In this document: piece after piece, positions 2,072 through 19,327 of the stretch
Layout: every line of letters begins with the position of its first letter
Numbering within the stretch: the first letter of the stretch is position 1
Source of the DNA: Candidatus Iainarchaeum sp.
GTDB lineage: Archaea > Iainarchaeota > Iainarchaeia > Iainarchaeales > 0-14-0-20-34-12
NCBI GenBank assembly: GCA_030649345.1
Contig: JAUSKK010000019.1
Span: forward strand, 1 to 19,327
Direction: 5' to 3'
DNA length: 19,327 bases
Translations under genes and position numbers: made by a program
Notes under the pieces: generated by a model
Databases searched by the model: none
Told to the model about the DNA's origin: nothing
What the model saw: the letters and a program-made list of their open reading frames with translations, nothing else

Positions 2072-2410
2072 TTAGCAAATTTTAGATTGATTAAGTGCAT
2101 GCACGACTTTGTCAGCAATAATTCTAGCTTGGCTTTCTTGTTTTAAGTCTTTGACTAAAATTTTCCCATTCTGAAACAAACTAGTGCTAACTGAATCAAT
2201 CACTAAAAGCAAAACTACAGGCGTATTAGCTTCGACTTGAATTCCTTGCTTGTGAAAACTTTCTGCAATCTTTTCCAAAGACAAATTCATAGATTGCTTG
2301 GGCAAAAAGTCATACCCTGTTCTACTCGAACAAGGTTTGCAGGCAAAATCTTTTAATTCAACCATAACCTGGTTGGTGTGTTGTGCTATCTTCACTTTGT
2401 TCGATAGCAC
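2072..2410 (-). CDS. Hypothetical small protein with a single CxxC (CKPC), co-directional downstream of aIF5A
   Basis: 112-aa ORF. The annotated start is GTG at 2410, 33 nt after the aIF5A stop; an alternative ATG lies at 2365. I recognise no family with confidence. The C-terminal FQNGKILVKDLKQESQARIIADKV loosely recalls C-terminal tails of archaeal ThiF/MoeB-type E1-like enzymes, from memory and unverified. Confidence 0.45.
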   Translation of the reverse strand: MLSNKVKIAQHTNQVMVELKDFACKPCSSRTGYDFLPKQSMNLSLEKIAESFHKQGIQVEANTPVVLLLVIDSVSTSLFQNGKILVKDLKQESQARIIADKVVHALNQSKIC

Positions 2411-2443
2411 AGTATCACATCTTTTAATTCAAACATAAACGCA

Positions 2444-2845
2444 TTATTTTTTGCGGTTGATTTTAAACAATGGACCATATCGAACGAATTCTACTTCATC
2501 GCCAGCTTTAATGCCTGGAATATCTTTGGGATTTAATACATCCACTGTTTCATAAGATTCTTGGTCCATAATTTGAATATTCCCGCCCATGACTGCAACT
2601 ACATTGGCTGAACCTTTTTCAACAATTGGAACTTCTACATCTGCAGAAGTAGGCTTTAAGAGTACTCGTTTTTGGTTGTCAAACAAGCCAATAGTCGTCA
2701 TTCTGGCTTTGGTAGACCCGTGTTTTCCGGATTTACTTTTTTCAACTTCTTTAACTTTGCAAACATGCTCGTCAATTAAAATATAACTTCCTTCTTTTAC
2801 TTGGCCAATTTCTTTAAATTGCTTTTCTGCATCCTTTCCTGCCAT
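2444..2845 (-). CDS. eif5a: Translation initiation factor 5A (aIF5A)
   Basis: 133 aa, starting at ATG 2845 with GAGGTGG 7 nt upstream. The hypusine-loop motif SKSGKHGSTKAR (K41 in GKHG) is present, followed by a C-terminal OB-like half typical of aIF5A/eIF5A. Confidence 0.9.
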   Translation of the reverse strand: MAGKDAEKQFKEIGQVKEGSYILIDEHVCKVKEVEKSKSGKHGSTKARMTTIGLFDNQKRVLLKPTSADVEVPIVEKGSANVVAVMGGNIQIMDQESYETVDVLNPKDIPGIKAGDEVEFVRYGPLFKINRKK

Positions 2846-2902
2846 TTTGTATCCACCTCAAAAACATCAATTACAATTATTAAATAGATTAAACTATAAT
2901 AA

Positions 2903-2973
2903 TCAGAGTGTTGAACAAATAAAAACATATGGTTGAGTTCAATATATTAAATATATAGTATTCAACACTCTGA
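2903..2973. repeat. Perfect 13-bp inverted repeat (TCAGAGTGTTGAA / TTCAACACTCTGA) with a 45-nt AT-rich spacer
   Basis: Arms read directly at 2903-2915 and 2961-2973. The repeat lies in the divergent intergenic region between aIF5A and the 3135 ORF. The spacer contains its own 7-bp palindrome ATATATT-A-AATATAT (2942-2956). Confidence 0.7.
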
Positions 2974-2990
2974 AAGAGCTTTACAAAGAA

Positions 2991-3007
2991 AATATAAATC
3001 TATATAT
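2991..3007 (+). promoter_or_regulatory. TATA-like run (AATATAAATCTATATAT), candidate promoter for the 3135 transcription unit
   Basis: AT-only TATA-like stretch about 25 nt upstream of the first hairpin of the 3029-3135 array. Placement follows the archaeal TATA rule of about -26; no BRE was assessed. Confidence 0.3.
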
Positions 3008-3028
3008 CGGGTTATCGGGTGCAAATAT

Positions 3029-3135
3029 GGTTTCAAAATCAAAGACTTTGAAAACCTTAAAAAACCAGGGGGGTTTTAATGGATTTAAATTTTGCAACAA
3101 AATTTAAAAATTTAAAATCGCAGAGGCGATTTTAA
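3029..3135 (+). repeat. Array of four consecutive AT-rich hairpins/palindromes abutting the ATG at 3135
   Basis: Stems read directly: 3029-3037/3047-3056; 3057-3066/3072-3079; 3084-3094/3098-3108 (11 perfect bp); 3112-3121/3126-3135 (10 perfect bp, loop AGAG). Centres are about 27 nt apart. They share the TTAAAAYC...GRTTTTAA theme with 7786-7954. Confidence 0.7.
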
Positions 3136-3620
3136 TGGAATTTCCTTCAGGCGAAAAACTAGAAACTGGAATTTTGTTAAAAAAATTCAATTTAGAGAAA
3201 ACCTTTACTCAATTGGCCGGCAGTAAATTTTCGGGTTATTTGGCCTTAACTATAGACAATACTACTGGAATCGAAGAAGGCATTTTGTTATGGAGAGAAG
3301 GAAAAATCACAGCCGCTCAATATGAGTACGGGCAATTGAAAGTTATTAACCAAGGAGAATTGGCATTTCAAGAATGTGTAAATGCTTTGCAGGCAGAAAA
3401 AGGAATTGTGGATATTTTTCAATTAACCAAACAACAAGCAGAACTCATTATAGCCTTTAATGAAAAACTTAAAACAGAACACGAAATCAAAGACTTAAAA
3501 AAATGGCTGGCAAAATTTTCAACCAAATTTAATGAAGACAGCCAAAAAAAAGCACAAAGCACAGATAAATCCAAAATTGACATCATGAAAAAAATGGGGT
3601 TATTGGATATTGAAAAATAA
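3135..3620 (+). CDS. Hypothetical protein, possible DUF4388/PATAN-like N-terminal domain plus Lys-rich helical tail
   Basis: 161-aa ORF starting at ATG. The pattern GILLKKFNLEKTFTQL..FSGYLALT...GILLWREGKITAAQYE....GELAFQECV...GIVDIF matches my recollection of the DUF4388 signature (G.L..l.dll..l....tG.L.v....g.iyf.dG.ivhA...G..A). It lies immediately upstream of a MinD-type ATPase. The family call is unverified. Confidence 0.55.
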   Translation: MEFPSGEKLETGILLKKFNLEKTFTQLAGSKFSGYLALTIDNTTGIEEGILLWREGKITAAQYEYGQLKVINQGELAFQECVNALQAEKGIVDIFQLTKQQAELIIAFNEKLKTEHEIKDLKKWLAKFSTKFNEDSQKKAQSTDKSKIDIMKKMGLLDIEK

Positions 3621-3631
3621 TTCGGCAACCC

Positions 3632-3639
3632 TTATAAAT
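3632..3639 (+). promoter_or_regulatory. TATA box (TTATAAAT) for the MinD-like gene, implying a leaderless or near-leaderless mRNA
   Basis: It sits 23-30 nt upstream of ATG 3662, and there is no SD between it and the start. Confidence 0.4.
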
Positions 3640-3661
3640 TTGTAGTTCTTAATAAGTTACT

Positions 3662-4444
3662 ATGACTCGCGTAATTGCAATCACTTCCGGAAAAGGTGGA
3701 GTAGGGAAAACTACTTTAACTGCTAATTTAGGAATTGGTTTAGCTCTCCAAAACCAAAAAGTTTTGCTGATTGATGCAGACATTGCCATGGCGAATTTGT
3801 CTTTGCATTTAGGAATGCAAAACACCCCCATTACATTACATGATGTATTATTGGGAGAGGCCTCCATTGCAGATTGTGTTTACGACGGACCCAACAAAAT
3901 TGAAATTATTCCTTCCGGTTTAAGTATTGAAAGTTATCGAAAAATTGATCCCACTCGGCTCAAAGGAATAGTAGATTCCATTAAAGACAAATATGATTTC
4001 ATTTTAATTGATACTGCAGCAGGCATTGAACGCATTGCTTTAGCAGCCTTAAGTGCCAGCACTGAAGTACTGCTGGTAGTAGAGCCAACGTCCAGCAGTA
4101 TTGCCGATGCATTGAAAACCAAAATCAGTGCCCAAAAATTAAATTGTAAAATCATTGGAGTTATTTTAAACAAAGTATTTAATGAAAAAGGAGAAATTTC
4201 TTCGGAAAATATTAGCCGAATGCTGGAATTACCAGTATATGCCATTATTCCGTTTGATGAAATTGTACGCAGATCATTCTATGAAGAACGTGCACCCTTT
4301 ATGGCCAGCGGAAAACAAACTCCAGCCATGAATGAAGTGAACAAAATTGTTTCCAGACTTATAGGGATTCCCATTAAAGAAACCAGCACAAAGGAATCAT
4401 TTATAAAAAGATTCTTAAATAAAATATTCAAACACAAACAGTAA
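3662..4444 (+). CDS. minD: MinD/ParA-family P-loop ATPase (archaeal MinD-like) with C-terminal amphipathic helix
   Basis: 260 aa. It has the deviant Walker A SGKGGVGKTT (residues 9-18), LLIDADIAMANL and a Walker B-like FILIDTAAG. The C-terminal SFIKRFLNKIFKHKQ resembles the MinD membrane-targeting helix (E. coli ...GFLKRLFGG). Confidence 0.85.
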   Translation: MTRVIAITSGKGGVGKTTLTANLGIGLALQNQKVLLIDADIAMANLSLHLGMQNTPITLHDVLLGEASIADCVYDGPNKIEIIPSGLSIESYRKIDPTRLKGIVDSIKDKYDFILIDTAAGIERIALAALSASTEVLLVVEPTSSSIADALKTKISAQKLNCKIIGVILNKVFNEKGEISSENISRMLELPVYAIIPFDEIVRRSFYEERAPFMASGKQTPAMNEVNKIVSRLIGIPIKETSTKESFIKRFLNKIFKHKQ

Positions 4445-4470
4445 AAAATAATCTAAAAGGAGAAAACACA

Positions 4471-4710
4471 ATGCAAGATAAAAAAACAGAAATACCTGGA
4501 AGACCATTTGATGACTTAAACAAAGCAGTTGGAGAAACTGTCTTGGTGAAACTGAAAGGCGAAAAAACAGTTCGCGGAATCTTAAAAGCATTTGATGTAC
4601 ACTTAAATATTGTATTGGATCAAGCCGAAGAATTAGAAAATGGAGAAGTTAAAATCAAGCACAGCAAACTCATGGTTCGCGGCGACTCCATTATTATGAT
4701 TGCTTTGTAA
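4471..4710 (+). CDS. Sm-like archaeal protein (SmAP/LSm)
   Basis: 79 aa with AGGAG 9-13 nt upstream of the ATG. Sm1 (VLVKLKGEKTVRGILKAFDVHLNIVL) and Sm2 (KLMVRGDSIIMI) motifs are present. Confidence 0.9.
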   Translation: MQDKKTEIPGRPFDDLNKAVGETVLVKLKGEKTVRGILKAFDVHLNIVLDQAEELENGEVKIKHSKLMVRGDSIIMIAL

Positions 4711-4711
4711 A

Positions 4712-5086
4712 TTACTTTCTAGACTTTTTTGCAATATCTTGAAATTCCCACACTAATGAAAGTAAATGCAAACGTTGGGCATAATCTTTTTCTTTTCCAG
4801 CTGCTTCAGAAATAGCACGAGCTATTTTATCTAAAGCATCAAATTGAAATTTTCCTTGTTCAGCTCTGCGCAATAATTCATGCACTGCACCTAAACGCAA
4901 AGTATGATGCGCATAAGCACTTTCACCTGGAGGACTTCGAATTTGATTGATTAAACCTTGAGATGGTTCTTTGAGTTGAGCAGTGGCTAATTGGGGCACA
5001 GTTTGTTTACCTAGTTGACTTGAAGCTTGAGTGTGTACAGCGTATTTGATTTTTGTGGCACGCAAACGTCCAAGTCTTCGATTCAT
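4712..5086 (-). CDS. Hypothetical all-alpha protein (orphan)
   Basis: I prefer ATG 5086 (124 aa, MNRRLGRLRATK...) over the TTG at 5110 used in the ORF track. A TATA-like TTTAATAATT sits 23-32 nt upstream of ATG 5086, suggesting a leaderless mRNA. The protein is Gln/Ala/Leu/Arg-rich and contains an R-x4-H string (RLGAVH). No family recognised. Confidence 0.5.
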   Translation of the reverse strand: MNRRLGRLRATKIKYAVHTQASSQLGKQTVPQLATAQLKEPSQGLINQIRSPPGESAYAHHTLRLGAVHELLRRAEQGKFQFDALDKIARAISEAAGKEKDYAQRLHLLSLVWEFQDIAKKSRK

Positions 5087-5108
5087 ACAAACAAAAATAC
5101 TGAAAAAC

Positions 5109-5118
5109 AATTATTAAA
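5109..5118 (-). promoter_or_regulatory. TATA-like element (TTTAATAATT on the minus strand) for the 4712-5086 ORF
   Basis: Positioned -23 to -32 from ATG 5086, in the divergent spacer shared with tRNA-Ala. Confidence 0.35.
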
Positions 5119-5150
5119 GGTTTCAGTCCATTATTTAATATCCAACACTT

Positions 5151-5222
5151 GGGCTCGTAGCGTAATGGTATCGCGCACCCATGGCATGGGTGAGACTACG
5201 GGTTCGATTCCCGTCGAGTCCA
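5151..5222 (+). tRNA. tRNA-Ala (anticodon GGC)
   Basis: Hand-folded cloverleaf: acceptor GGGCUCG/CGAGUCC with the alanine identity pair G3:U70; D-arm GCGU-AAUGGUA-UCGC; anticodon arm CACCC-AUGGCAU-GGGUG; T-arm ACGGG-UUCGAUU-CCCGU; discriminator A. CCA is not encoded. Confidence 0.9.
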
Positions 5223-5283
5223 CTTAAAAATCAACTTACAAAAATACAGACATACTATCCATCAGTCTGTATGAGATCACATT

Positions 5284-5814
5284 ATGAGAAAATCAAATCC
5301 AAAAACAAGAAAACCTAAGAGTATTGTGAAAAAACCATTTAATCCATATCGAACCATGAAAAGAACTATTACCAAAGCAAGCTTTGCTGTTCGAAAAAGA
5401 GCAGGTCCTCAATCTAAACGAAGCCCCAATGAAAAAATGAAACGCGTCAAACATGTTTTTAGACAAAAAATGATTCAGCCATTAATTAAATATGCATTGG
5501 ATAAAAACGGAATTACGAATCTTGAAATAAGAGCTTTTTGTTATCAAAGATATCCATATGGAGAAGAAAATGAAGGACTCCAAAAAGGCCTTAGAGAACT
5601 ATTTAAAAAAATCTGCACAAAATATTCTGAAGGCCAAGCTTCACAAGTTATAAATGACTTCAACGACTTAGCGGCCAATATGACTTCACTTTTAGTGCAA
5701 CGGCCGCCAATCCATCCAAATCCTGTGACTGATTTAGCACAAGTACAAGCATGGTCAAGAAGGGTATTAAATGCAGCACAAAAGCAAATGGATAACTTGA
5801 AAAGAAAAAAATAA
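5284..5814 (+). CDS. Hypothetical protein with strongly basic N-terminal ~60 aa (orphan)
   Basis: 176-aa ORF starting at ATG. The N-terminus MRKSNPKTRKPKSIVKKPFNPYRTMKR...RKRAGPQSKRSPNEKMKRVKH is Lys/Arg-rich, followed by a helical C-terminal half. No family recognised. Confidence 0.5.
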   Translation: MRKSNPKTRKPKSIVKKPFNPYRTMKRTITKASFAVRKRAGPQSKRSPNEKMKRVKHVFRQKMIQPLIKYALDKNGITNLEIRAFCYQRYPYGEENEGLQKGLRELFKKICTKYSEGQASQVINDFNDLAANMTSLLVQRPPIHPNPVTDLAQVQAWSRRVLNAAQKQMDNLKRKK

Positions 5815-5973
5815 ACACACAAACAATTGGGTGCACACGCAAAACGCTTTAGCAAAAATACAATCGTAAACTAGAATACTGTAAAATTTAGAAAAGCCTC
5901 TGAAACTCACAGAATACAACCAGTACATGCGTGTACATAGCTTTTTAAGAATAAAAACTCTAATGTAGAAAGC

Positions 5974-7335
5974 ATGCAAGAAGATGATTTACTGATTCAG
6001 TCCATTAAAAAACTGCGTTCTTTGAATGTTTCTGACCAAGAAATTTTGTTAAACTTAAAAGAATTGGGCGTAGACGAACCTAAAGCTAGAACCTTGTTAG
6101 CGCAAAGCAAACAAACACAAAACGAATTATTAAAAGAAACTGCAAATTTATCGGAAACTGAATCCGAAGAAAATGTTTTATTGGATGAAGTCATGGAAGA
6201 CAAAACACAAGTACAATCAATTAAGCCAATTCCGGAAGCTACTCAAATTTCTAAATTATGGGAAAAAGGAATTCTGGTAACCATTACTCAAAACTTGGAG
6301 GAAATGCAGCGCTTAAAAAAAGACATTGGGTTAGTTGTCGATTCTAAAGTAAAAGAAAGCATGGAAAAAGAAAGGAAAAAAATGCAAACCTTGCTGGACT
6401 CACAGCGTATTTTGTTAGGCGAAAAAGTGAATGTAGAATTGCAAGGAAAAGAAAAAGAAATTACGGAAATCATTAATTCCAAAATACAAGAATTAACCGA
6501 ATTGGCTAAAGAAATTCAGGCCAATTTGCAGGACATTGAGCGTTTAAAAATAGGCCAACAGCAAGTCTTGAAAGAATTTGAAGTCAAAAAACAAGAACTC
6601 ATTCAAACCAAAAACAAAATGGTTATTGAAATGAATTCTGAATTAATTAAAGAAAAAAGTTCAGCCGAAGAAATATTAAACCAGTTAAAAGAAAAACTGG
6701 GAGAAATAGATAATCGTGTGGATAAATCATTGGAATTAGAATCTAAGATTGTCGAAGGATTGGTAGCCGATGCAGAAGACCAGATTACGCAATTAAAAGA
6801 TGAAAAGAAAAGCGAACTCAGTGCAGACATTGAAGCTGAGCTTGAAAAATTAGAAGTAATTCGAAAAAAAATTGATCCAGACAAATTACAGGAAAAAATA
6901 AAACAATTGGATTTATTCAAAAAACAAATCGAACAGGCATTTACAGGAAAAGAGCAGGAAATTGAATTATTCAAACAACAACTTCAAGTGAAATCTATGG
7001 AAGCAGCCAAAGAAGCTGCGCAGGAAAAAGTAAGCGAAAGTGCTGCAATCGTACGCAAAGAAATGGATGTAGAAGGCTTCAAAACGCAAATGAAAGGATT
7101 GGAAGAATTCAGAAAACAATTTGTAAACGCCTTGCAGGAAAATACAGATCAATTTAATGAAAAATTGACAATGTTTAATGAAAGCACAGTGCAAATGATG
7201 AAAGAGTATGATTCTAGAGTGAAAAAAATTGATTCCAAAATCGAAGAGCTTGACACTTTTGCCAAAAACTTTGCGCAAGAATTGGGATTAGTACTGGATG
7301 AATTAATCAAAAAAGAAAAAAACAAGAAAAAATAA
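5974..7335 (+). CDS. Long coiled-coil protein (Glu/Lys/Gln-rich) with a small N-terminal helical domain
   Basis: 453 aa. Residues ~90-450 are nearly continuous heptad-like E/K/Q/L sequence. The C-terminal third carries a recurring L-[DE]-x-F-[KRA]-[KQ]-[QN]-[IFL] motif (LDLFKKQI, IELFKQQL, LEEFRKQF, LDTFAKNF). The N-terminal LIQSIKKLRSLNVSDQEILLNLKELGVDEPKARTLL looks like a UBA/TS-N-type three-helix unit, which is tentative. Confidence 0.7.
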   Translation: MQEDDLLIQSIKKLRSLNVSDQEILLNLKELGVDEPKARTLLAQSKQTQNELLKETANLSETESEENVLLDEVMEDKTQVQSIKPIPEATQISKLWEKGILVTITQNLEEMQRLKKDIGLVVDSKVKESMEKERKKMQTLLDSQRILLGEKVNVELQGKEKEITEIINSKIQELTELAKEIQANLQDIERLKIGQQQVLKEFEVKKQELIQTKNKMVIEMNSELIKEKSSAEEILNQLKEKLGEIDNRVDKSLELESKIVEGLVADAEDQITQLKDEKKSELSADIEAELEKLEVIRKKIDPDKLQEKIKQLDLFKKQIEQAFTGKEQEIELFKQQLQVKSMEAAKEAAQEKVSESAAIVRKEMDVEGFKTQMKGLEEFRKQFVNALQENTDQFNEKLTMFNESTVQMMKEYDSRVKKIDSKIEELDTFAKNFAQELGLVLDELIKKEKNKKK

Positions 7336-7339
7336 TAGT

Positions 7340-7714
7340 TTACAAGCTTTTTAGTTTTACATATTTTTGATACGCTTGTTCTACATGTTCGTGTCTTACG
7401 TATTGTTTGTGGTTTCGAAAACCGCCGGCAAATGATTGGGGAACATGCATGAGTTCATGAATCAATACTTTGGTTTGAGCTGTTGCATCCAGTTTGTTAA
7501 ATTTTTCAGAGATTAATTCAATTACATAGCAGGGCTTCATATTCATGCCAATCTGCAAGGCTTTCGAAGTTCCATGAATGCGAGCATAAGCCCTAGCTTT
7601 TGAACCAAAACTAATAATGCACGAAATACGTGAATGATCAATGTAATCAAAGTTTAAAGTGCTGGCAATTTCATGCGCTTTGTTTGTCCATTCTGGAGAA
7701 AAAGAATACTTCAT
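7340..7714 (-). CDS. Predicted zinc metallopeptidase (HExxH; archaeal COG4900/SprT-like small peptidase)
   Basis: I prefer ATG 7714 (124 aa, MKYSFSPEW...) over the TTG at 7729. It has an HELMH motif followed by VPQSFAGGFRNH, and an upstream SFGSKARAYARIHG. This matches my memory of the small archaeal predicted-metallopeptidase family. Confidence 0.6.
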   Translation of the reverse strand: MKYSFSPEWTNKAHEIASTLNFDYIDHSRISCIISFGSKARAYARIHGTSKALQIGMNMKPCYVIELISEKFNKLDATAQTKVLIHELMHVPQSFAGGFRNHKQYVRHEHVEQAYQKYVKLKSL

Positions 7715-7767
7715 ACACAAACAAAACAACTAAAAGAATTAAAAAAGAAGTATTGTGAAAACAAAGT

Positions 7768-7965
7768 CAAGCCTATCGAGTGAAACGCAATTAAAATCGA
7801 AGATTTTAATGCGTGATTAAAACTTAGAGTTTTAATACGCCCAGCTTAGGCGCATTAAAACCAAGGGTTTTAATCGCGAAGATAGGCTAACACGCCAACC
7901 AGGTTATACTGCAAAATCGAAGATTTTGCATATACGCAAAATTACAATTTTGCGGTATGGTTGAA
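7768..7965. ncRNA. Candidate structured RNA / palindromic-unit cluster of unknown class (strand undetermined)
   Basis: There are two nested domains. AGCCTATC 7770-7777 pairs with GATAGGCT 7881-7888 and encloses hairpins 7786-7813, 7816-7836 and 7851-7878. CAACC 7896-7900 plus ATAC 7906-7909 pair with GTAT 7955-7958 plus GGTTG 7959-7963 and enclose hairpins 7910-7930 and 7935-7954. Arm differences between units are compensated. No Rfam family was identified by eye. Confidence 0.4.
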
Positions 7966-8610
7966 TTATTGGAAAACATTTTGCGGTTTGAACATTTTCT
8001 TTCTTCCTTGTTTTTTCCAGCCAGGCTTATGTGAACCTCTAGCTTTTTCTGCGCCTTTTCCTTTATTGCGCAAGCCTCGGGATTTTCTACCTGAACTGGT
8101 TAAGCCTCTCCAAACTCTTCCGCGATGATTTCCATTCAATAACCAGTTGACGTCTTTGTCAGATTGAACGGCTGGATTTAAAGAATCAATTAAAATGACT
8201 TCAAAATAATGCTTGGTTCCATCGTTTCCAACAGAATAACTGTTTAAGACTTCACAATTTGGAAACTTTCGTGCAGCTCTTTGTTCTGCAATGGATTGAA
8301 TGCTTAAGTTTCGGGTTAATTTATTAATTCCCATTCGCTTAGGTCTGCGGGCCATAGTTGGTCTTGTGTGCATTCCTGAACCTTTTCTGACTCGAACGCG
8401 GGCAACCACAAAACCTTGTTTGGCTTTATAACCTAAAGTTCGGGCTCTAGCTAAATTCGTAGGCCTTTGCACTCGAAGAACAGCATGTTTTTCTTTACGG
8501 TAAGTCTGCAATCTGTCAGCATTGATTTTTTTATAATTGAAATCTTTGTCTTTTTTACCCTTAAACTCATTTTGAAAGGTTTCTTGAATATACGTTAACG
8601 CATTGGTCAT
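7966..8610 (-). CDS. rpl15e: 50S ribosomal protein L15e
   Basis: I prefer ATG 8610 (214 aa, MTNALTYIQETFQ...) over GTG 8619, because L15e proteins begin with this Y-I-x-E/D-x-W/F-type segment. Diagnostic stretches: RPTNLARARTLGYKAKQGFVVARVRVRKG, RPKRMG, EVILID, NHRGRVWRGLTSSGRKSRGL. Confidence 0.92.
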   Translation of the reverse strand: MTNALTYIQETFQNEFKGKKDKDFNYKKINADRLQTYRKEKHAVLRVQRPTNLARARTLGYKAKQGFVVARVRVRKGSGMHTRPTMARRPKRMGINKLTRNLSIQSIAEQRAARKFPNCEVLNSYSVGNDGTKHYFEVILIDSLNPAVQSDKDVNWLLNGNHRGRVWRGLTSSGRKSRGLRNKGKGAEKARGSHKPGWKKQGRKKMFKPQNVFQ

Positions 8611-8729
8611 AAAAGTCACTTAAAAACAGTTATAGAATAAATAATCCGGATATTTTAAAAAGGAATACTTTAAAGGCAAATTAAACGAAAAAGGCTCTAT
8701 TTTTAAGAAATTCTGAGAAAATACACTAT

Positions 8730-9749
8730 ATGGGAAGCACTAGCACAGAATTAATTTTGACGTGTGGAGAAAAACGCACAGACATATTGAAAGAACAGGC
8801 AGTCCAATGCAGGCATTGCAGTCAACCAGCAAAAATTCATTTACCGTACACAAAATTAGATTTATGCGCTAATCACTTCACGCACTTGTTGGAAAAACGA
8901 GTGAAGTATACTGTTCGAAAATACAAACTTATTCAAGCCAAAGAAAAAATTGTAATCGGTGTCAGTGGAGGAAAAGACTCCATGACTACATTGCATATTT
9001 TGGGAAAATACTATTCTAAGAGCAATCCAATTGAAGCCTTAATGATTGACGAAGGAATTCATGGATACAGAGACAGTGCAGTCCAAGTTGGAATCAATAT
9101 GTGCAAACAATTGGATATTCCGTACAAGGTTGTACGTTATCAAGATGAATTTGATTTAAGTATGGACAAAATTGCGAACTTAATTGAAAAAAATCCAGAC
9201 TTAGGTACAACATGTAGTTTTTGCGGAGTCATGCGCAGACAATTGTTGAACAAATATTCCAGAGAAATGGGGGCAGACAAATTAGCTACAGGACACAATT
9301 TAGATGACGAAGTTCAAAGTGTGTTAATGAATATTACACAAAATAGCTATGATTCTTTTATTCGCACTGGAGCCACTACTGGAATTAAAAGTTTTCAAGG
9401 ATTTATCCCCAGAATTAAACCATTGTATGAAATTCCAGAAAAAGAAATTATTGCCTATACTGCGTTCAATAATATTGAGCATTATTCGCATGATTGTTGT
9501 CCGCATTCCTGGCAAGCCAAACGCAATGATTTTAGAAAAATTTTAAATGACTTGGAAACCAAATATCCTGGAACCAAATACGGAACATTAAATTTCTTTA
9601 ATGCAGTTAAAGACAAACTTCGCACAATAGAAGTAGACAAAATCAAAACACTCGATATGGAATACTGTAAAGAATGCGGAGAACCGAGTGCTAAAGCAAA
9701 ATGCAAAGCTTGTGAAAAGATAGAGATTTTAAAAAAACAACCTATCTAA
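8730..9749 (+). CDS. ttuA: TtuA/Ncs6(NcsA)-family tRNA 2-thiouridine synthetase (PP-loop ATPase with Fe-S and zinc-finger cysteines)
   Basis: 339 aa. It has an N-terminal CxxC...CxxH finger (CRHCSQP...CANH), the PP-loop SGGKDS, central CSFCGVMRR plus a later DCCPHS (cluster-ligand pattern of TtuA/Ncs6) and a C-terminal CKECG...CKAC finger. Whether the target is U54 or U34 cannot be told from sequence. Confidence 0.8.
9727..9734 (+). promoter_or_regulatory. Possible TATA element (TTTTAAAA) for tRNA-Val inside the 3' end of the ttuA-like CDS
   Basis: It lies 27-34 nt upstream of tRNA position 1 (9761). Only 11 nt separate the CDS stop from the tRNA, so any dedicated promoter must lie within the CDS. 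Confidence 0.25.
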
Positions 9750-9760
9750 GTAGTTTAATC

Positions 9761-9831
9761 AGGCCCGTGGTTTAATGGTAGAATGGCACACTTACACTGT
9801 GTTGAAAGGAGTTCGATTCTCCTCGGGCCTA
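9761..9831 (+). tRNA. tRNA-Val (anticodon UAC)
   Basis: Hand-folded cloverleaf: acceptor AGGCCCG/CGGGCCU (A1:U72); D-arm GUUU-AAUGGUA-GAAU; anticodon arm GCACA-CUUACAC-UGUGU; 4-nt variable loop; T-arm AGGAG-UUCGAUU-CUCCU; discriminator A. CCA is not encoded. Confidence 0.88.
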
Positions 9832-9837
9832 CTTTAA

Positions 9838-10398
9838 ATGAAAAATATGCTCGAAACAGATTTTGTTGAATTTTTTGACTTAAATAAACTAAAACAAATT
9901 CAAGCCTTTTTAGGGAACTCAAAAATAGTTGTTTTGAAAACCGTGAAAGTTAAAGAAGAAATCAAAGACTTAAAAGAACAATTTCCTAAACTTGAATTTG
10001 GAACCTGGATTAATTCAAAAAATGAGCGCATGATTCAATCTATGGGTTCTCAAACTAAATATTTAGTTGTGCCTGCAGAAACTTTACAAGATTACCAGTT
10101 TTCAGTTAACCACAAGCAAGTACAATTTATTGTGCCTAATTTAAAACGAAAACTAGAACTAGACCTCCAATTAGCTGGATTGTTAGGCAATGCCGAAAAG
10201 ATAATCTTAATTCCTTTTTCTGAATTTTTAACAGCCAAACCTTTTGAAAGAGCAAAAATGATTGAAAACTTTAAAAAATTATCTAAGATATGCAAAAAAG
10301 CAAAAATAGAAATGCATTGGATTAGTTTAGCTCAAAACGAATATGACTTAAGAAATATGAAAGACTTCAAAAACTTAGAAAGCTTAATTCAAAAATGA
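9838..10398 (+). CDS. rnp3: RNase P protein component 3 (Rpp30/Rnp3-like)
   Basis: 186 aa. The C-terminal two-thirds (YLVVPAETLQDYQFSVNHKQVQFIVPNL...ILIPFSEFLTAKPFERAKMIENFKKLSKICKKAKIEMHWISLAQNEYDLRNMKDF) aligns by eye with my recollection of Pyrococcus Rpp30 ([28 protein letters not shown]...[43 protein letters not shown]). It needs an HMM check. Confidence 0.6.
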   Translation: MKNMLETDFVEFFDLNKLKQIQAFLGNSKIVVLKTVKVKEEIKDLKEQFPKLEFGTWINSKNERMIQSMGSQTKYLVVPAETLQDYQFSVNHKQVQFIVPNLKRKLELDLQLAGLLGNAEKIILIPFSEFLTAKPFERAKMIENFKKLSKICKKAKIEMHWISLAQNEYDLRNMKDFKNLESLIQK

Positions 10399-10419
10399 AC
10401 AATCAATCAGTGAAAAAAT

Positions 10420-10977
10420 ATGAGTACACAAAAAAAATTACCTTCCCACAAACAATGCTTGAACTGGATTCAGGAGAAAAATCCAGCCAACATTGTACAG
10501 CATAGTTTGCAGGTCAACAAAGTTGCAATGTTTTTAGGAAAAAAATTACAAGAAAAAGGACAAAAAATTGATTTAGAGTTATTGGATCGAGCTAGTTTAC
10601 TGCATGACCTAGATAAATTTGAAACTCTGAAAACAGGCAACCATGGATTTACAGCAGGAAAATGGTTAAGAAAAAAAGGATTCAAACGAATAGCAGAAGT
10701 CATAGAACACCATTTAACCAACCGAATATTGGATTCAGATTTTAATGAATGGCCTTGGGAAGACAAGTTAGTCAATTATTCAGATCGAAGAATTGTACAT
10801 ACTAAAATTGCCAGCCTAAAAGAACGATTTGCTTACTTGATTCAAACATATGGAACTACACCAGAACGAAAAAATACTTTAAAAAAAGCAGGACAAAAAT
10901 TCTTGAAATTTGAAACACAATTAAAGAAAATACTTAAAAGTTCTTTAAGCTCTAACCAGCTCAAAAAACAGATTTAA
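10420..10977 (+). CDS. HD-domain metal-dependent phosphohydrolase
   Basis: 185 aa. H...HD signature: VQHSLQV (His), LLHDLDK (HD), IEHH further downstream. Substrate unknown. Confidence 0.75.
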   Translation: MSTQKKLPSHKQCLNWIQEKNPANIVQHSLQVNKVAMFLGKKLQEKGQKIDLELLDRASLLHDLDKFETLKTGNHGFTAGKWLRKKGFKRIAEVIEHHLTNRILDSDFNEWPWEDKLVNYSDRRIVHTKIASLKERFAYLIQTYGTTPERKNTLKKAGQKFLKFETQLKKILKSSLSSNQLKKQI

Positions 10978-11041
10978 TAATGAGTGATGTTCTGCATAAA
11001 GCATCCTAACGATATTTGCTAACTATCGACATCACTCATTA
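10978..11041. repeat. Perfect 13-bp inverted repeat (TAATGAGTGATGT / ACATCACTCATTA) enclosing a 38-nt spacer with inner stems
   Basis: The arms are at 10978-10990 and 11029-11041, starting at the base after the HD-gene stop codon. There is an inner 5-bp stem CGATA 11010-14 / TATCG 11024-28 and a mini-stem TGC-ATAAA-GCA. Confidence 0.7.
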
Positions 11042-11067
11042 AATAAACTACATATTCTAAATAAGTC

Positions 11068-11427
11068 ATGCTAAGAGAGGATAAATTTGCAATTCTAGCC
11101 ATAGCCGTAAGCTTGTTAGGCCTAATTTTATTGTTTTATTATACAGAAACCCAACAACCAATTTTAGTCAAAGTAAGTGAAATTACGGAAGAAAAAATAG
11201 GCTGGCAAATTGAAACCCAAGGCCGAGTCAAAAATCTATATTCTGGAAAAAACTTTCTTGCATTTGAATTAATAGATCAAAACAGTATTTCTGGAATTTT
11301 GTTCAATCCAAATACAATTCAAGCAGCTGTGCTTCAAGAAAATTTTAAAGTAAAAATTCAGGGAAAAATAGAAAAACGAAACAAACAACTCCAAATTCAA
11401 GTACAGGAAGTGAGTTCGTTTGACTGA
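11068..11427 (+). CDS. Membrane-anchored OB-fold protein (tRNA_anti-like OB domain after one N-terminal TM helix)
   Basis: 119 aa. TM helix FAILAIAVSLLGLILLFYY, then the OB pattern IETQGRVKNLYSGKNFLAFELIDQNSISGILFNP....FKVKIQGKIEKRNKQLQIQVQEV. Confidence 0.6.
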   Translation: MLREDKFAILAIAVSLLGLILLFYYTETQQPILVKVSEITEEKIGWQIETQGRVKNLYSGKNFLAFELIDQNSISGILFNPNTIQAAVLQENFKVKIQGKIEKRNKQLQIQVQEVSSFD

Positions 11428-12583
11428 ATTTGGTTTACTGCTTACTTTTGTTTTAGCCGGATGGATTCTTGGAACTTTTACTGGATTTATTCCAGGAATT
11501 CACGGAAATCTAATTGCTGGATTGCTGGTACTGTTTTTTAGTTCCAGCAACGAATATCTTGCCATGGCAATTATTTCAGCCAGCATTACCCATGTGTTTT
11601 CAGAATGGATTTCTGCACAATTGCTTCAATGGCCAACCGAAACAGGATACCTTTTTCAGGTATATTCAAATTCCAAAACATCTTTTCAAGAATTAATTCA
11701 CCAAGGATTTATTGCAGGATTGCTTGCGATCATTTTTGCGTTAGGGTTAAGTTCAATTCTTTTTTTCATTCAACCCATTCTTCAAACAATCACATTTCAT
11801 TTGCTTATTTTAGTATTGGGCTTGTTGATTGTCAGTGCAGGAACTTGGAAAAAAACAATTTACACAATTGCAATTATTGGATTGGCTGGAATTCTGGGAT
11901 TAATTGCATTAAATTCATTAACATTTCGCGATCCATTGCTTCCCTGCATTACTGGATTTTTTGGAATCAGCACTTTGCTGCAGGAATTGTTTTTAGAAAA
12001 AATGAAAACAAAAGAACTCACGTCAACTCAGTGGAGTTGGAAAAATAATGCAATCGGAACAGGAATTGGATTAAATATTGCATTAATTCCCAGCATAACC
12101 ATCGGAGAACAAACTTTAGCAGCACAAGAAATATTTGGAAAAAAGAAAGGATTGAATTGGCAGAATACAATTGCGTGCGCCAGTATAGCTTCTTTGGTTG
12201 CTTCTTTTATTTTAGCTGAAACCAATAATCTTGCACGAACTGGACAATCTGCATTAATGAAGGAAATGCTGTCTGGAAAAGAAAATTTAATTCTAATATT
12301 GGGAGTAATTCTTTTCACATTGGGATTATCTTATTTGAGTCATTCGTTTTTTGCAAAAAAAATTTCTGCAGGCATGCAAAACTTTCCAGTAAAACTATTT
12401 TCGGTAATTTCTTTAATTTTTTTAATTGCCATCAACTTTATTTTAGGCAGTTGGCTGGGATTATTTTTGTTAATTATTTCAACCAGTATTGGCTTGCTTC
12501 CTTTGTTAACTGGAACCCATCGAAGCAGCTGCATGAGTTTTTTATTAATTCCTACTTTGATTTTTTATTTTCCGTTCGGTTAA
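11420..12583 (+). CDS. Polytopic membrane protein, DUF112/TctA-like (archaeal COG1784-type)
   Basis: 387 aa with at least 9 hydrophobic helices. The N-terminal GTFTGFIPGIHGN resembles the DUF112 G-x-x-PG signature. The start is TTG at 11420, overlapping the upstream stop by 8 nt and preceded by GGAAGTGA 7 nt upstream. There is no in-frame ATG for about 46 codons. Confidence 0.6.
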   Translation: MTEFGLLLTFVLAGWILGTFTGFIPGIHGNLIAGLLVLFFSSSNEYLAMAIISASITHVFSEWISAQLLQWPTETGYLFQVYSNSKTSFQELIHQGFIAGLLAIIFALGLSSILFFIQPILQTITFHLLILVLGLLIVSAGTWKKTIYTIAIIGLAGILGLIALNSLTFRDPLLPCITGFFGISTLLQELFLEKMKTKELTSTQWSWKNNAIGTGIGLNIALIPSITIGEQTLAAQEIFGKKKGLNWQNTIACASIASLVASFILAETNNLARTGQSALMKEMLSGKENLILILGVILFTLGLSYLSHSFFAKKISAGMQNFPVKLFSVISLIFLIAINFILGSWLGLFLLIISTSIGLLPLLTGTHRSSCMSFLLIPTLIFYFPFG

Positions 12584-12622
12584 TAGATTTATTTAAATCC
12601 TGAACTCAAATAACATTACTGT

Positions 12623-12991
12623 ATGTATTTAGTAAAACAGCAGCTAATCGATTCCTTATTGGAAGCTGCGCGCATCGTTTATCCAAATGAATTTATTTGC
12701 TTAATTGGATCCAAACAAAACAATCAAATCTTAGATGATTTAGTGGTAGTTCCTGCAGTTTACGGAGATAGTTATTCGTTCATTCACTCTCATTTAGTGC
12801 CTATAGATCCAACCATTAAAGGGTCTGTGCATTCGCACCCAACACAATCCAATCAGCCAAGTACAGCGGATAAACAAGCATTTCAAAAATTAGGCAGTGT
12901 GCATTTAATTATCGGATACCCGTATACTATAGACTGTATTCAGATGTACGACTCGCAAGGAAACCCAATTCATTTTGAGGTAATTCAATGA
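12623..12991 (+). CDS. JAMM/MPN+ (Mov34) family metalloprotease
   Basis: 122 aa with a complete JAMM motif: E23 ... H70-S-H72-x7-S80-x-x-D83 (HSHPTQSNQPSTAD). Confidence 0.8.
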   Translation: MYLVKQQLIDSLLEAARIVYPNEFICLIGSKQNNQILDDLVVVPAVYGDSYSFIHSHLVPIDPTIKGSVHSHPTQSNQPSTADKQAFQKLGSVHLIIGYPYTIDCIQMYDSQGNPIHFEVIQ

Positions 12992-14553
12992 GCAAAAATA
13001 AAGCAAAACCAGTTGTATTGATTGTAATGGATGGATTTGGCTTAGGTAAACCAAATTCAGGAAATGCAATTTTTTTAGCTAAGCCTAAAAACTTTAATAA
13101 TTACTGGAAAACATATCCTCGTACTTCATTGAATTGCATTGGAAAATTTGTTGGCTTAAGTGGAAAAACTCAAGGCAATTCTGAAGTTGGACACTTGCAT
13201 TTAGGTGCAGGAAAAATTGTCTGGCAGCCTATGGAATTGATTGATCGAGCCATTCAAAACAAACAATTTTACAAAAATAAAGCCTTTCTTAAAGTAATTC
13301 AAAATGTAAAAAAACACAAAACACAATTACATTTAATGGGCTTGTGTTCAAATCAAGGAGTCCATGCTCAATTGCAACATTTGTTTGAATTAATTAAATT
13401 GGCAAAAAAACACAAACTCAAAAAAGTATTCATTCACTGTTTTTTAGATGGACGAGACGTACCCGAACGCAGTGCAATAAAGTATGTGCAGCAAATTCAA
13501 ACAGAATGCAATAAACTAAAAATTGGAAAAATTGCTTCCTTGATTGGAAGATATTACGCCATGGACAGAGATCAAAATTGGGAAAGAACTCAAACAGCCT
13601 ATGAATTAATTACTCAAGGAAAAGGAAAACCCATTCAAGACCCCATACAAGGAATTCAAACAATATACCAAGAAGGAAATGAAACAGATTACTATATTGA
13701 ACCTTTGGTTGTGGTAGAACAAACCGGAAAGTCAGTAAGTATAATTCAAGAAAACGACGGAGTTATTTTTTTCAATTTTCGCACAGATCGAGCCCGGCAA
13801 TTAACTCAGGCAGTCACGGATTCAAAATTTGATAAATTTAAACGAAAAAAAATTCCAGTTACTTTTGTCAGCATGACCGAATATAATCCTAAATTTAAAA
13901 CATTGATTGCGTTTCCTCAAGAAAAAATTAAAACAAATTTAGGAAAAATAATCAGCCAACACAGGCTAACTCAATTACGGATTGCGGAAACTGAAAAATA
14001 TGCACATGTAACTTTCTTTTTTAATTCACAAACTGAAAAGCCTTCCAAAGGAGAACACCGTATTTTGATTCCGAGTCCAAAAGTTAAAAGTTATGACTTA
14101 AAACCAGAAATGTCAGCCTATAGAATTAAGGATACTTTAATTCAAGAATTGGAAAAAAATAAATATGATTTTGTCTTGATTAATTTTGCCAACCCAGATT
14201 TAGTGGGGCATTCCGGAAAACTAAATGCAACCATAAAAGCAGTTCAAGTAGTAGATGAATGTATTGGAAAAATTGTTGAAAAAGTACTGGAAAAAAATGG
14301 AATTGTTTTATTAACTGCAGATCATGGAAATGCTGAAGAAATGGTATACTCGAATGGTTTACCTAAACCCAGTCATACGCAAAATAAAGTTCCTTGCATT
14401 TTAATTTCAAACAAACCTAACTGGAAAAAAATAAAACTTAAAAAAAATGCAGAAATAAAGGATATAACACCCACAATCCTTGAATTATTGAAATTAAAAA
14501 AACCCAAAGAAATGACTGGAAAATCATTGATTCAAAACCATAAGCAGAATTAA
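12988..14553 (+). CDS. gpmI: 2,3-bisphosphoglycerate-independent phosphoglycerate mutase, bacterial GpmI type
   Basis: 521 aa, collinear with my recollection of Bacillus iPGM: VVLIVMDGFGL, GNSEVGHLHLGAGKIVWQ, FLDGRDV, GRYYAMDRDQNWERT, LRIAETEKYAHVTFFFN, PEMSAY, ANPDLVGHSG, TADHGNAEEM, EMTGKSLI. Its ATG overlaps the JAMM stop (ATGA). Confidence 0.92.
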   Translation: MSKNKAKPVVLIVMDGFGLGKPNSGNAIFLAKPKNFNNYWKTYPRTSLNCIGKFVGLSGKTQGNSEVGHLHLGAGKIVWQPMELIDRAIQNKQFYKNKAFLKVIQNVKKHKTQLHLMGLCSNQGVHAQLQHLFELIKLAKKHKLKKVFIHCFLDGRDVPERSAIKYVQQIQTECNKLKIGKIASLIGRYYAMDRDQNWERTQTAYELITQGKGKPIQDPIQGIQTIYQEGNETDYYIEPLVVVEQTGKSVSIIQENDGVIFFNFRTDRARQLTQAVTDSKFDKFKRKKIPVTFVSMTEYNPKFKTLIAFPQEKIKTNLGKIISQHRLTQLRIAETEKYAHVTFFFNSQTEKPSKGEHRILIPSPKVKSYDLKPEMSAYRIKDTLIQELEKNKYDFVLINFANPDLVGHSGKLNATIKAVQVVDECIGKIVEKVLEKNGIVLLTADHGNAEEMVYSNGLPKPSHTQNKVPCILISNKPNWKKIKLKKNAEIKDITPTILELLKLKKPKEMTGKSLIQNHKQN

Positions 14554-14577
14554 ATAAAACACTGGCTTAAGTTATAC

Positions 14578-15006
14578 ATGAATGACCGCGGGCAATTTAG
14601 TGTAGATTTGCTTTTAGCTGTAGGCGCTGTTTTTACATTTATAATAGCCTTGCAAGGTATTGCCGCAACTATGGGGTCAACGCAGGCAGAACACAGTATT
14701 ATTATCCAAGAAAGCGAATTGTCTTTGAAAATCGCCAGCCTATTCAATGAAAGCCGAATACTTCAAGAAGGAAAATTCAAAATCGAATATGCAACTCCAA
14801 ACTTAAAAGTTCCTGGAAAAAACAATCAACCCAATTGCAGCATACGCATTGAAACTAACCCAAAACAAGTCGTGGTAGCCTATGATTTAGATGGACAGAA
14901 TTTAGAAGCAAGTTCTCAAATAGTATTAACTGAAGATATCCTAAATCAAATGATTTTTCCAGAAAATTTAAATTGCGGAGAAAAATTAACCATTGAAAAA
15001 AGGTAA
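14578..15006 (+). CDS. Class III signal-peptide protein (archaeal type IV pilin-like), 1 of 4
   Basis: 142 aa. The N-terminus MNDRG/QFSVDLLLAVGAVFTFIIAL has a short charged leader with R at -2 and G at -1, then a Q-x-S-x-D-x-x-x-L (DUF361-like) and a hydrophobic helix. There are two Cys in the mature part. Confidence 0.7.
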   Translation: MNDRGQFSVDLLLAVGAVFTFIIALQGIAATMGSTQAEHSIIIQESELSLKIASLFNESRILQEGKFKIEYATPNLKVPGKNNQPNCSIRIETNPKQVVVAYDLDGQNLEASSQIVLTEDILNQMIFPENLNCGEKLTIEKR

Positions 15007-15011
15007 CTGAT

Positions 15012-15530
15012 ATGAACGATCACGCACAAATTTTTAGCTTGGATGCAATCATTTCTTTAATTTTAGTAATTTTTGCATTAGGGATTATTTTTGGGATACT
15101 GGAAACCAATTCCTATAATTTAAAAGAACAGCAAATATTTGAAGAACTACGAATTGCTGGAAGAACTGCAGCCAATGTTTTGATTGCCAGTCCAGAGCTA
15201 ACTTGCACACTAACCAATTCTTCTGGAACTGAATTATTTTCAATCACCCATTGTTTAGATATTCAAAAAGTTCAAGGAATTTCAACACAAGATTTAGAAT
15301 TGCCTTCAGATTATCAATTTAGTATTCAGCGTACAGGAATACTTTTAGCTGGAGAAATGATTCCGGAAAATAGTGCACACATTTATTCAGAAAAACGAAC
15401 TGTGTTTTTTTACGATAGCTTAGCTGAACCCATTACCAAACAAAAATGGATGGAATGCAAGACAGGAAATCCTGCCTGCGCACTTACTGAACCCGAAGAA
15501 GTAATGATTTCCATATGGAGGGTTCCATGA
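15012..15530 (+). CDS. Class III signal-peptide protein (pilin-like), 2 of 4
   Basis: 172 aa. MNDHA/QIFSLDAIISLILVIFALGIIFGIL is the same leader architecture as the upstream gene. Four Cys. The start is 5 nt after the upstream stop. Confidence 0.65.
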   Translation: MNDHAQIFSLDAIISLILVIFALGIIFGILETNSYNLKEQQIFEELRIAGRTAANVLIASPELTCTLTNSSGTELFSITHCLDIQKVQGISTQDLELPSDYQFSIQRTGILLAGEMIPENSAHIYSEKRTVFFYDSLAEPITKQKWMECKTGNPACALTEPEEVMISIWRVP

Positions 15531-15826: not shown

Positions 15827-15828
15827 GC

Positions 15829-16347: not shown

Positions 16348-16348
16348 C

Positions 16349-16365
16349 TTTGGTTTTTCTTTTTA
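16349..16365 (+). terminator. Oligo-T tract (TTTGGTTTTTCTTTTTA), candidate archaeal terminator for the pilin-like operon
   Basis: A T-rich run directly after the stop at 16347. Archaeal termination typically uses oligo-T. It overlaps the 3' end of the convergent gene. Confidence 0.3.
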
Positions 16366-17205: not shown

Positions 17206-17277
17206 ACTCTTTTTTTGAACAGAAATCCGTAATAATATACCTTTGTTCAGAAAATAAATAAAAATGCAAAAATTTGT

Positions 17278-19074: not shown

Positions 19075-19081
19075 AAAGATC

Positions 19082-19294: not shown

Positions 19295-19327
19295 TATAGG
19301 TTTATTAAAAGGAAATGTTCGATTATG

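Follow-up and report, generated by a model that had tools for sequence, protein, structure and literature searches.

A probable nested DNA repeat built of bulged 28-nt palindromes between the L15e and metallopeptidase genes of a Diapherotrites archaeon

The window analysed here is an entire contig of 19,327 bp (JAUSKK010000019.1) from a metagenome-assembled genome (MAG) labelled Candidatus Diapherotrites archaeon (DPANN), and statements about the genome are limited to these 19.3 kb. The contig carries housekeeping genes for IF5A, an Sm-like protein, a TtuA-like enzyme, two tRNAs, RLI and iPGM, together with the gene for ribosomal protein L15e (MDO8428097.1). In the order of minus-strand transcription, L15e is followed by the element described here and then by a metallopeptidase gene. 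A first examination of the DNA letters alone (hereafter the sequence-only reading) had noticed that this spacer is densely self-complementary. It took the spacer for a folded RNA of two nested multi-helix domains enclosing five AT-rich hairpins, with a cluster of extragenic palindromes as the alternative. The length of 251 nt that it gave for the gap is right: on the minus strand, which carries both genes, L15e has its stop at 7966 and the metallopeptidase gene starts with the ATG at 7714.

All the helices of that description were found where it had placed them. Five perfect 9-bp hairpins, numbered U1 to U5 below, lie within region 7770-7963, the 8-bp pair 7770-7777/7881-7888 is present, and the 15-mer AAAATCGAAGATTTT occurs twice (7793-7807 and 7913-7927). 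Folding of a 211-nt segment gave -72.1 kcal/mol on the plus strand (z = -8.54) and -77.3 kcal/mol on the minus strand (z = -9.34), and none of 200 dinucleotide shuffles folded as well, so that the element is far stabler than shuffles on either strand. Five of the eight perfect hairpins of at least 8 bp in the window fall in 170 nt of this spacer. The background for such hairpins in 1.19 Mb of archaeal loci is 0.23 per kb, and clusters of at least three of them in 250 nt were observed at only three other loci of that set. Each of the five local hairpins thus exists; as a joint structure they do not represent the best fold, reaching -58.8 kcal/mol, 13 kcal/mol worse than the minimum free energy (MFE) structure at -72.1 kcal/mol. 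In the latter, U2 is paired with U3 and U4 with U5, as any unit is complementary to any other. The frequency of this MFE structure in the ensemble is 0.01, alternative unit-unit pairings being dominant.

All five hairpins repeat a single unit of 28 nt, in which a 9-bp stem with a 3-nt loop is extended by a 1-nt bulge and a 3-bp clamp (Table 1). In U1 and U4 the loop may form a C(GAA)G triloop, a kind that is very stable in DNA. Individual units measure 27-28 nt, with 12 paired positions and one bulge, and all are located inside the 251-nt spacer. The bulge-plus-3-bp-clamp extension was present in only 8 of 259 background hairpins (3.1%). An A4/T4 core is invariant across all five units. The longer core AAAAYC-N3-GRTTTT, previously proposed to be common to all, holds for U1, U3 and U4 and fails for U2 (AAAACT/AGTTTT) and U5 (AAAATT/AATTTT with a 2-nt loop). 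Likewise, the long-range ATAC/GTAT helix assigned to the second domain is in reality formed by the terminal clamps of U4 and U5.

Table 1. Positions of the composite element, its parts and the neighbouring genes in the window
Feature	Positions	Strand	Description
L15e ribosomal protein gene	7966-8610	-	214 aa; Pfam PF00827 E = 7e-66; upstream neighbour, element in and after its 3' end
Metallopeptidase gene	7340-7714	-	PF18894, HExxH; downstream neighbour; own TATA-like box inside backbone
Whole composite element	7738-7995	-	backbone with two nested insertions; fills L15e-metallopeptidase spacer and overlaps last ~10 L15e codons
Backbone left arm	7959-7995	-	GCAAAATGTTTTCCAATAATTCAACC; holds 5' strand of H1 (CAACC, 7963-7959); left boundary ~7995 approximate
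Backbone middle	7879-7907	-	ATAACCTGGTTGGCGTGTTAGCCTATCTT; H1 3' strand (GGTTG, 7900-7896), linker, H2 5' strand (AGCCTATC, 7888-7881)
Backbone right arm	7738-7785	-	H2 3' strand GATAGGCT (7777-7770), T-tracts, TATA-like CTTTTTTAATTC (7749-7738)
Second, uninterrupted ('empty') backbone copy	2343-2430	+	opposite orientation; in spacer past IF5A stop (2444)
Insertion 1	7908-7955		48-nt inverted doublet U5+U4 in H1 loop, flanked by duplicated (A)TA
Insertion 2	7786-7878		~93 nt with U3, U2 and U1 in H2 loop (12 nt in uninterrupted copy)
U1 (subfamily A)	7786-7813	+	CGC / bulged A7789 / ATTAAAATC / GAA / GATTTTAAT / GCG
U2 (subfamily A)	7812-7839	+	CGT / bulged G7815 / ATTAAAACT / TAG / AGTTTTAAT / ACG
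U3 (subfamily A)	7850-7878	ambiguous	clamp GCG/CGC or CGC/GCG, stem ATTAAAACC / AAG / GGTTTTAAT
U4 (subfamily B)	7906-7933	+	ATA / bulged C7909 / TGCAAAATC / GAA / GATTTTGCA / TAT
U5 (subfamily B, inverted)	7932-7958	-	ATA / CGCAAAATT / AC / AATTTTGCG / bulged G7955 / TAT
Perfect 9-bp stems	7790-7798/7802-7810; 7816-7824/7828-7836; 7854-7862/7866-7874; 7910-7918/7922-7930; 7935-7943/7946-7954

The sequence-only reading had claimed that every difference between arms is mirrored on the opposite arm. In the oriented unit alignment, 59 of 59 stem cells are Watson-Crick with no G·U; 8 of the 12 unit stem pairs change on both sides and none on one side only, and the resulting covariation score was reached by 0 of 500 shuffles. 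As judged by the side of the bulge, U1, U2 and U4 are forward and U5 is inverted, U5 being the reverse complement of ATA-C-CGCAAAATT-GT-AATTTTGCG-TAT. The inner pairs of U3 are CC/GG and its bulge is either C7853 or C7875, which makes its orientation ambiguous. Both orientations are present in the array, which may or may not alternate strictly. The units start 26, 38, 56 and 26 nt apart. U2 and U3 form an inverted doublet with 30-nt imperfect arms, 77% complementary and 7 nt apart, as in REPINs (defined below), and U4 and U5 form another with 21-nt arms, 76% complementary, whose termini ATACCGCAAAAT and ATTTTGCAGTAT match at 11 of 12 positions as a terminal inverted repeat. Each doublet can fold as a single long hairpin, and both pairings are used in the MFE structure. 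The lack of G·U pairs, the equal stability of the two strands and the presence of both orientations suggest either that DNA hairpins are under constraint or that the palindromes were formed by templating, and they speak against an RNA read from a single strand.

The unit can be written as CGY-N-ATTAAAAYN-N3-NRTTTTAAT-RCG and ATA-C-YGCAAAATY.... Neither the strict unit pattern nor the backbone 18-mer matched viral contigs or the other fetched loci, and ATTAAAAY...RTTTTAAT gave only non-specific AT-rich matches in the viral contigs. The loose core AAAAYN5RTTTT was not significant over the window (5 matches, 2.7 expected).

The part of the element that lies outside the units, here called the backbone, is built around two hairpins, H1 and H2, and possesses a second copy without interruptions in the spacer past the IF5A gene. 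The clue to this copy was an independently assembled contig that ends at window position 2386. Plus-strand 2343-2363 aligns with minus-strand 7984-7959, and plus-strand 2364-2393 with minus-strand 7907-7878 (26 of 30 identical); in the segment that follows, GATAGCAC stands opposite GATAGGCT. With the insertions excised, the local alignment score was 32, where shuffles gave 10.9 +/- 2.0 (maximum 21) and random segments of the window 10.1 +/- 1.8; the global score was 41.7, compared to 13.9 +/- 2.9, and blastn reported the match at E = 0.001 in 2.25 Mb. The backbone can be written as GCAAAATSTTT...TAATTCAACCATAACCTGGTTGGYGTGTT...CTATC, and the counterpart of the right-arm end in the paralog is ...CACAGTATCACATCTTTTAATTC.

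In the uninterrupted copy, H1 is CAACC(A)/(T)GGTTG (2359-2375) and H2 is GTGCTATC/GATAGCAC with a 12-nt loop (2385-2412). H1 is identical between the copies, while H2 keeps 8 bp by means of three compensatory pairs (AGCCTATC/GATAGGCT versus GTGCTATC/GATAGCAC), both copies being fully Watson-Crick as written. The 8-bp pair AGCCTATC/GATAGGCT is thus the backbone hairpin H2 and not a terminal inverted repeat of the insert. The uninterrupted copy folds as two small hairpins and its spacer has z = -3.5 on both strands. Taken alone, the helices thought to close the two domains are present yet weak (P ~0.02 for the 8-bp and ~0.33 for the 5-bp helix), and they gain support only because of the second copy of both at 2359-2412. 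Each backbone copy abuts the stop codon of a translation-related gene (L15e, IF5A). The copies are oppositely oriented relative to their co-directional flanking genes, which argues against a strand-specific cis-regulatory role.

The 'domains' of the focal element are insertions that occupy the backbone loops, the other copy of the backbone being free of them. The empty site reads CAACC-ATA-ACCTGG (2359-2372) in the uninterrupted copy, and the filled site CAACC-ATA-[48 nt]-ATA-ACCTGG in the focal one. Two further observations concern the region of the uninterrupted copy. A 22-nt direct repeat ATCTTTTAATTCAAMCATAAMC at 2349-2372 and 2418-2441 (20 of 22 identical, blastn E = 5e-4) brackets its H2 and includes a TATA-like box; it may be a duplicated promoter or mark both ends of a module. 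A small minus-strand open reading frame (ORF; 2072-2410) of 112 residues encodes a single TBP-like repeat, matched by Pfam TBP over residues 41-108 (E = 2e-5). This match begins exactly at an internal Met (ATG 2290), so that the true protein may have only 72 aa, and the overlap with the backbone repeat concerns the N-terminal portion of the ORF.

The backbone also reaches into the flanking genes. The L15e protein carries a C-terminal extension of 11 residues (KMFKPQNVFQ and one preceding residue; window 7966-7998, minus strand), which is absent in 10 of 10 aligned relatives, all ending in KRQAK. The codons of the extension and the stop are encoded by the backbone left arm, so that the overlap with the L15e 3' end belongs to the backbone and the units themselves are extragenic. 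At the other end, the TATA-like CTTTTTTAATTC of the right arm lies 24-35 nt upstream of the metallopeptidase ATG, and boxes of the TTTTAA/TTTAAA type stand at a like distance from many starts on the contig. It is probable that a separate promoter serves the metallopeptidase gene, which would put the hairpin array within the 3' untranslated region (UTR) of L15e on the minus strand. No ORF of at least 20 aa crosses the element, and a hidden small protein was therefore rejected.

An independent assembly was available as Logan k = 31 contigs of run SRR13727527 with exact matches to the window. These tile it as 1-2386, 3108-7842, 7813-12751 and 12745-19322. The second and third overlap by exactly 30 nt (7813-7842) inside U2, the pattern expected where an assembly graph of k = 31 branches at a node, and the contig that ends at 2386 (L287) stops inside the uninterrupted backbone copy. 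Three of the four internal breaks are found in three repeat-bearing spacers that make up 3.7% of the window (P = 2e-4), the fourth being at 12745-51. These breaks fit the existence of further identical copies at other places in the community, or else hypervariability, neither of which is proven.

The ends of the MAG contig (1; 19322-19327), both intergenic, coincide exactly or within 5 nt with Logan contig ends, which suggests that repeats or graph branches also end the contig. Another hairpin cluster was observed at 3028-3135, in the divergent IF5A/DUF2226 spacer. It consists of four stem-loops with A-tract/T-tract stems: 3030-3055 (with an A·C on the plus and a G·U on the minus strand), 3061-3077, 3084-3108 (11 bp) and 3112-3135 (10 bp), the last ending on the A of the DUF2226 ATG. 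These hairpins are without the bulge-plus-clamp of the 28-nt unit; their spacer has z of -4.5/-5.8 and a Logan contig ends there at 3108. Rfam TD-2 gave a sub-threshold match at 3054-3141 (29 bits for a gathering score of 48.7, E = 0.019). In the same spacer, a long hairpin (2903-2975) with a 13-15-bp stem CAGAGTGTTGAAC ... GTTCAACACTCTG encloses ~44 AT-rich nt; it has no Rfam match and could be another repeat or a small RNA.

We further examined the related loci. No close relative by L15e was found in GTDB representatives, a metagenome collection or a set of 5.8 billion proteins, the best identities being 56-62% among GTDB species representatives, 75% for one truncated metagenome contig and 70% in the protein set. 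In the four relatives that were read (L162, L163, L164 and L286, 63-70% L15e identity), the spacer past L15e measures 52, 3, 291 and 69 nt, respectively, and the hairpin cluster is absent from all four; the 291-nt spacer of L164 folds at z = -0.36. Conservation of the element downstream of L15e, which the sequence-only reading had put forward as a check, is thus not observed in these relatives, the nearest of which shares only 70% identity in L15e. Compared to L163 and L164, the TtuA-L15e block is inverted relative to a conserved 453/530-aa gene of unknown function (window 5974-9749), and the element is located at the breakpoint of this inversion. The metallopeptidase gene is interposed here, and the 138-aa gene that L162 and L164 have between TtuA and L15e is missing. 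In the more distant DPANN relative L092 (33.5% GC, L15e 57% identical), three similar tandem hairpins lie at 585-669, just upstream of a tRNA gene on the minus strand; among them are ACATAAAATCC-TTT-GGATTTTATGT and AATAAAATTTC-ATA-GAAATTTTATT, the last with a 1-nt bulge and clamp. A-tract hairpin arrays may be more widespread in AT-rich DPANN genomes. In L004, an uncultured archaeon of 21.6% GC, three AT-only hairpins with 9-12-bp stems (3604-3695) are found directly 3' of L15e, for which chance, given so AT-rich a genome, is a serious alternative.

Several known classes of element were considered and discarded. At gathering scores, Rfam identified two tRNAs only in the whole window. At E<=10, region 7650-8050 gave three sub-threshold chance matches on its two strands, the best being a microRNA model at 22.6 bits for a gathering score of 86, and region 2800-3200 gave chance matches only. 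The faint likeness to RNase P RNA that had been noted is accordingly without an Rfam match. The Rpp30-like subunit reported at 9838, cited in its context, is an insecure assignment as well, PF01876 scoring 19.1 bits for a cut-off of 35; the ORF concerned (9838-10398, plus strand) begins 7 nt past a tRNA gene (9761-9831). No C/D-box, H/ACA, kink-turn or bulge-helix-bulge motif was found by eye. A CRISPR array was rejected on the spacings of the units, the lack of spacers and the palindromic nature of units present in both orientations. An intrinsic terminator was also rejected, with one consensus match, no more than in shuffles; the other gene ends in the window and in relatives have T-tracts without hairpins. 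For an origin of replication, the window contains no Orc1/Cdc6 gene and no repeats resembling origin recognition boxes by eye.

Taken together, these results make it probable, in our view, that the element is a composite nested repeat that originated and persists at the DNA level rather than a dedicated RNA gene. It would resemble repetitive extragenic palindromes (REPs) and their clusters, the bacterial interspersed mosaic elements (BIMEs), the inverted REP doublets known as REPINs, or MITEs (miniature transposable elements with inverted repeats). The cluster of REP/BIME-like palindromes, given only as an alternative by the sequence-only reading, is therefore the interpretation that the evidence favours: there is one palindromic unit family, in both orientations, and an uninterrupted backbone paralog. 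On the genome-wide dispersal of near-identical units, named by that reading as the mark of a REP- or MITE-type repeat, the evidence is indirect only: two backbone copies in 19 kb and the assembly breaks at the repeats. Some results weigh against it. The strict 28-nt unit was not found outside this cluster in the 19.3-kb window, and no window ORF has a transposase-like Pfam match. The ATA duplication that flanks insertion 1 is only 2-3 nt long, lies in a TATA-like run and may be due to chance, and the boundaries of insertion 2 are ambiguous. The breaks in the assembly graph could equally stem from strain variation. Moreover, inserts confined to apical loops, with closing helices that are conserved and covarying, would also be expected of a structured RNA with expansion segments.

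This last point leads to the possibility of a structured small-RNA family, either an independent small RNA or one processed from the L15e 3' UTR, whose conserved core would be H1 and H2 (plus-strand 2343-2430 and minus-strand 7995-7738) and whose focal copy would carry expansion hairpins. The identity of H1 between copies, the three compensatory changes that preserve the 8 bp of H2, the survival of the closing helices as the insertions occupy apical loops only, and a very high predicted stability, with a paralog spacer that also beats shuffles, are all in its favour. Nevertheless, we consider it unlikely. The putative RNA belongs to no Rfam family and is missing in four relatives; G·U pairs are absent from all 59 unit stem cells, both H2 copies are fully Watson-Crick and both strands fold equally well; the supposed expansions consist of a single palindrome, present five times and in either orientation; alternative unit-unit pairings dominate the ensemble (MFE frequency of 0.01, local hairpins 13 kcal/mol worse). 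The overlap with a coding 3' end and with the TATA-like box of the next gene further indicates that it is not a discrete gene.

Perfect Watson-Crick stems would also result from templated correction, and a purely local origin has to be weighed, in which template switching or snap-back synthesis makes palindromes that are amplified in place, with neither mobility nor function. Consistent with this, CA(A/T)ACCGCAAAAT at 7990-7978 recurs as the outer arm of U5 at 7959-7947, the backbone GCAAAATCTT matches the U4 arm, and the unit is seen nowhere else in 19 kb. It appears improbable to us in view of the backbone at two distant loci in opposite orientations, of the two distinct unit subfamilies sharing one precise architecture, and of graph branches at a unique-looking 30-mer in U2 and in two other repeat-bearing spacers, which suggest more copies elsewhere. 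Least credible is a set of protein-binding DNA sites, such as operators of a dimeric regulator, or decoy or bidirectional boxes of the TATA/B-recognition-element type controlling the metallopeptidase or L15e genes. Such sites would account for the A4/T4 core in 5 of 5 units and for the position of the array, 50 nt upstream of the ATG of the metallopeptidase gene. The arms GRTTTTAAT, moreover, contain the hexamer TTTTAA, which 4 of 20 genes here have at 15-45 nt upstream where ~1.1 would be expected. On the other hand, the half-sites outside the A-tract covary instead of being conserved, as expected from a hairpin constraint rather than sequence read-out, a bulge-plus-clamp is meaningless in B-form duplex DNA, and no comparable array exists in the relatives.

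For the favoured nested DNA repeat, the following history can be proposed. A backbone module of ~90 nt, with H1, H2 and a TATA-like end, exists in at least two copies in the contig in opposite orientations, and both loops of the focal copy would have received 28-nt bulged palindromes, the U4/U5 doublet in H1 and U1-U3 in H2. The units may have spread as hairpin-forming DNA. This could have occurred through a trans-acting transposase, in the manner of REP/REPINs with their REP-associated tyrosine transposases (RAYTs), of an IS200/IS605-type single-strand enzyme or of a TA/TWA-duplicating MITE, or alternatively through local template-switch replication that makes and perfects palindromes. Within the L15e 3' UTR, the stem-loops would incidentally block 3'-to-5' decay, and the array would separate L15e from an independently promoted metallopeptidase gene.

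REPINs are inverted REP doublets mobilised by RAYT transposases. The element shares with REPs, BIMEs and REPINs the imperfect palindromes, extragenic and 20-40 nt long, whose stems have a conserved irregularity, the head-to-head and head-to-tail clustering in one spacer, the presumed 3' UTR placement, a structure kept by compensatory changes and inverted doublets (U2/U3, U4/U5) able to form one long hairpin. It differs from them in its archaeal host, in stems that are AT-rich rather than GC-rich and in units that are nested in the hairpin loops of another repeat; no RAYT gene was seen in the window, and the likeness is based on one 19.3-kb contig. The units begin with CGCA, CGTG, GCGC or ATAC and are devoid of a GTAG or CGTC tag, of the kind described for REPs (PMC3733652); GTAG and CTAC are absent from 7760-7970. 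REPINs have been stated as not detected in archaea (bioRxiv 10.1101/2021.07.10.451892), while generic extragenic palindromes and MITEs are reported there, DPANN included (PMC12306157; PMC11602168), MITEs at high density in some DPANN archaea (PMC11602168).

MITE-like features are the short non-coding intergenic module, the inverted termini (ATACYGCAAAAT at both ends of the U4/U5 doublet), the possible 2-3-nt (A)TA target duplication, the empty-site paralog and the promoter-like end. In contrast to MITEs, the inserts are only 48 and ~93 nt and built of 28-nt palindromes, the shortness of the duplication keeps it from being decisive, and no parent insertion sequence or transposase is found in the window. 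In IS608, recognition takes place on single-stranded DNA, the target being imperfect hairpins that have an extrahelical base. Stems that are strictly Watson-Crick and a bulge that is conserved, as observed here, fit such single-strand recognition and recall the subterminal hairpins of the IS200/IS605 family (summarised in PMC6006769) and of its derivatives that lack a transposase. Unlike these, five hairpins are arrayed here instead of one per element end, no TnpA or TnpB gene is nearby and no conserved cleavage tetranucleotide was identified. A bolder scenario, to which we attach little probability, would make this the first archaeal REPIN-like system: a trans-acting enzyme of the Y1/HUH type would copy the 28-nt bulged unit as single-stranded DNA, and the unit would favour other hairpins' loops as insertion sites, remodel gene ends such as the L15e C-terminus and carry promoter-like boxes in a streamlined DPANN genome.

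Elsewhere in the window, two neighbouring plus-strand ORFs at 14578-15530 without Pfam match begin with MND(R/H)xQ(I)FS(V/L)D followed by a hydrophobic stretch. Such starts resemble class III (type IV pilin-like) signal peptides of archaea, and the similarity between the two ORFs is weak (E = 0.001).

This locus provides a worked example of how a very stable, multi-helix, covarying intergenic segment of a MAG can be a nested DNA repeat and not an RNA gene. Its telltale signs are covariation by Watson-Crick pairs only, the presence of both orientations, an empty-site paralog and breaks in the assembly graph. If the units are indeed dispersed and mobile, REP/REPIN-type elements would be extended to DPANN archaea, where they were previously unreported. 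Having altered the C-terminus of a ribosomal protein and covering the promoter region of the next gene, the element shows how repeats can reshape compact genomes and fragment their assemblies.

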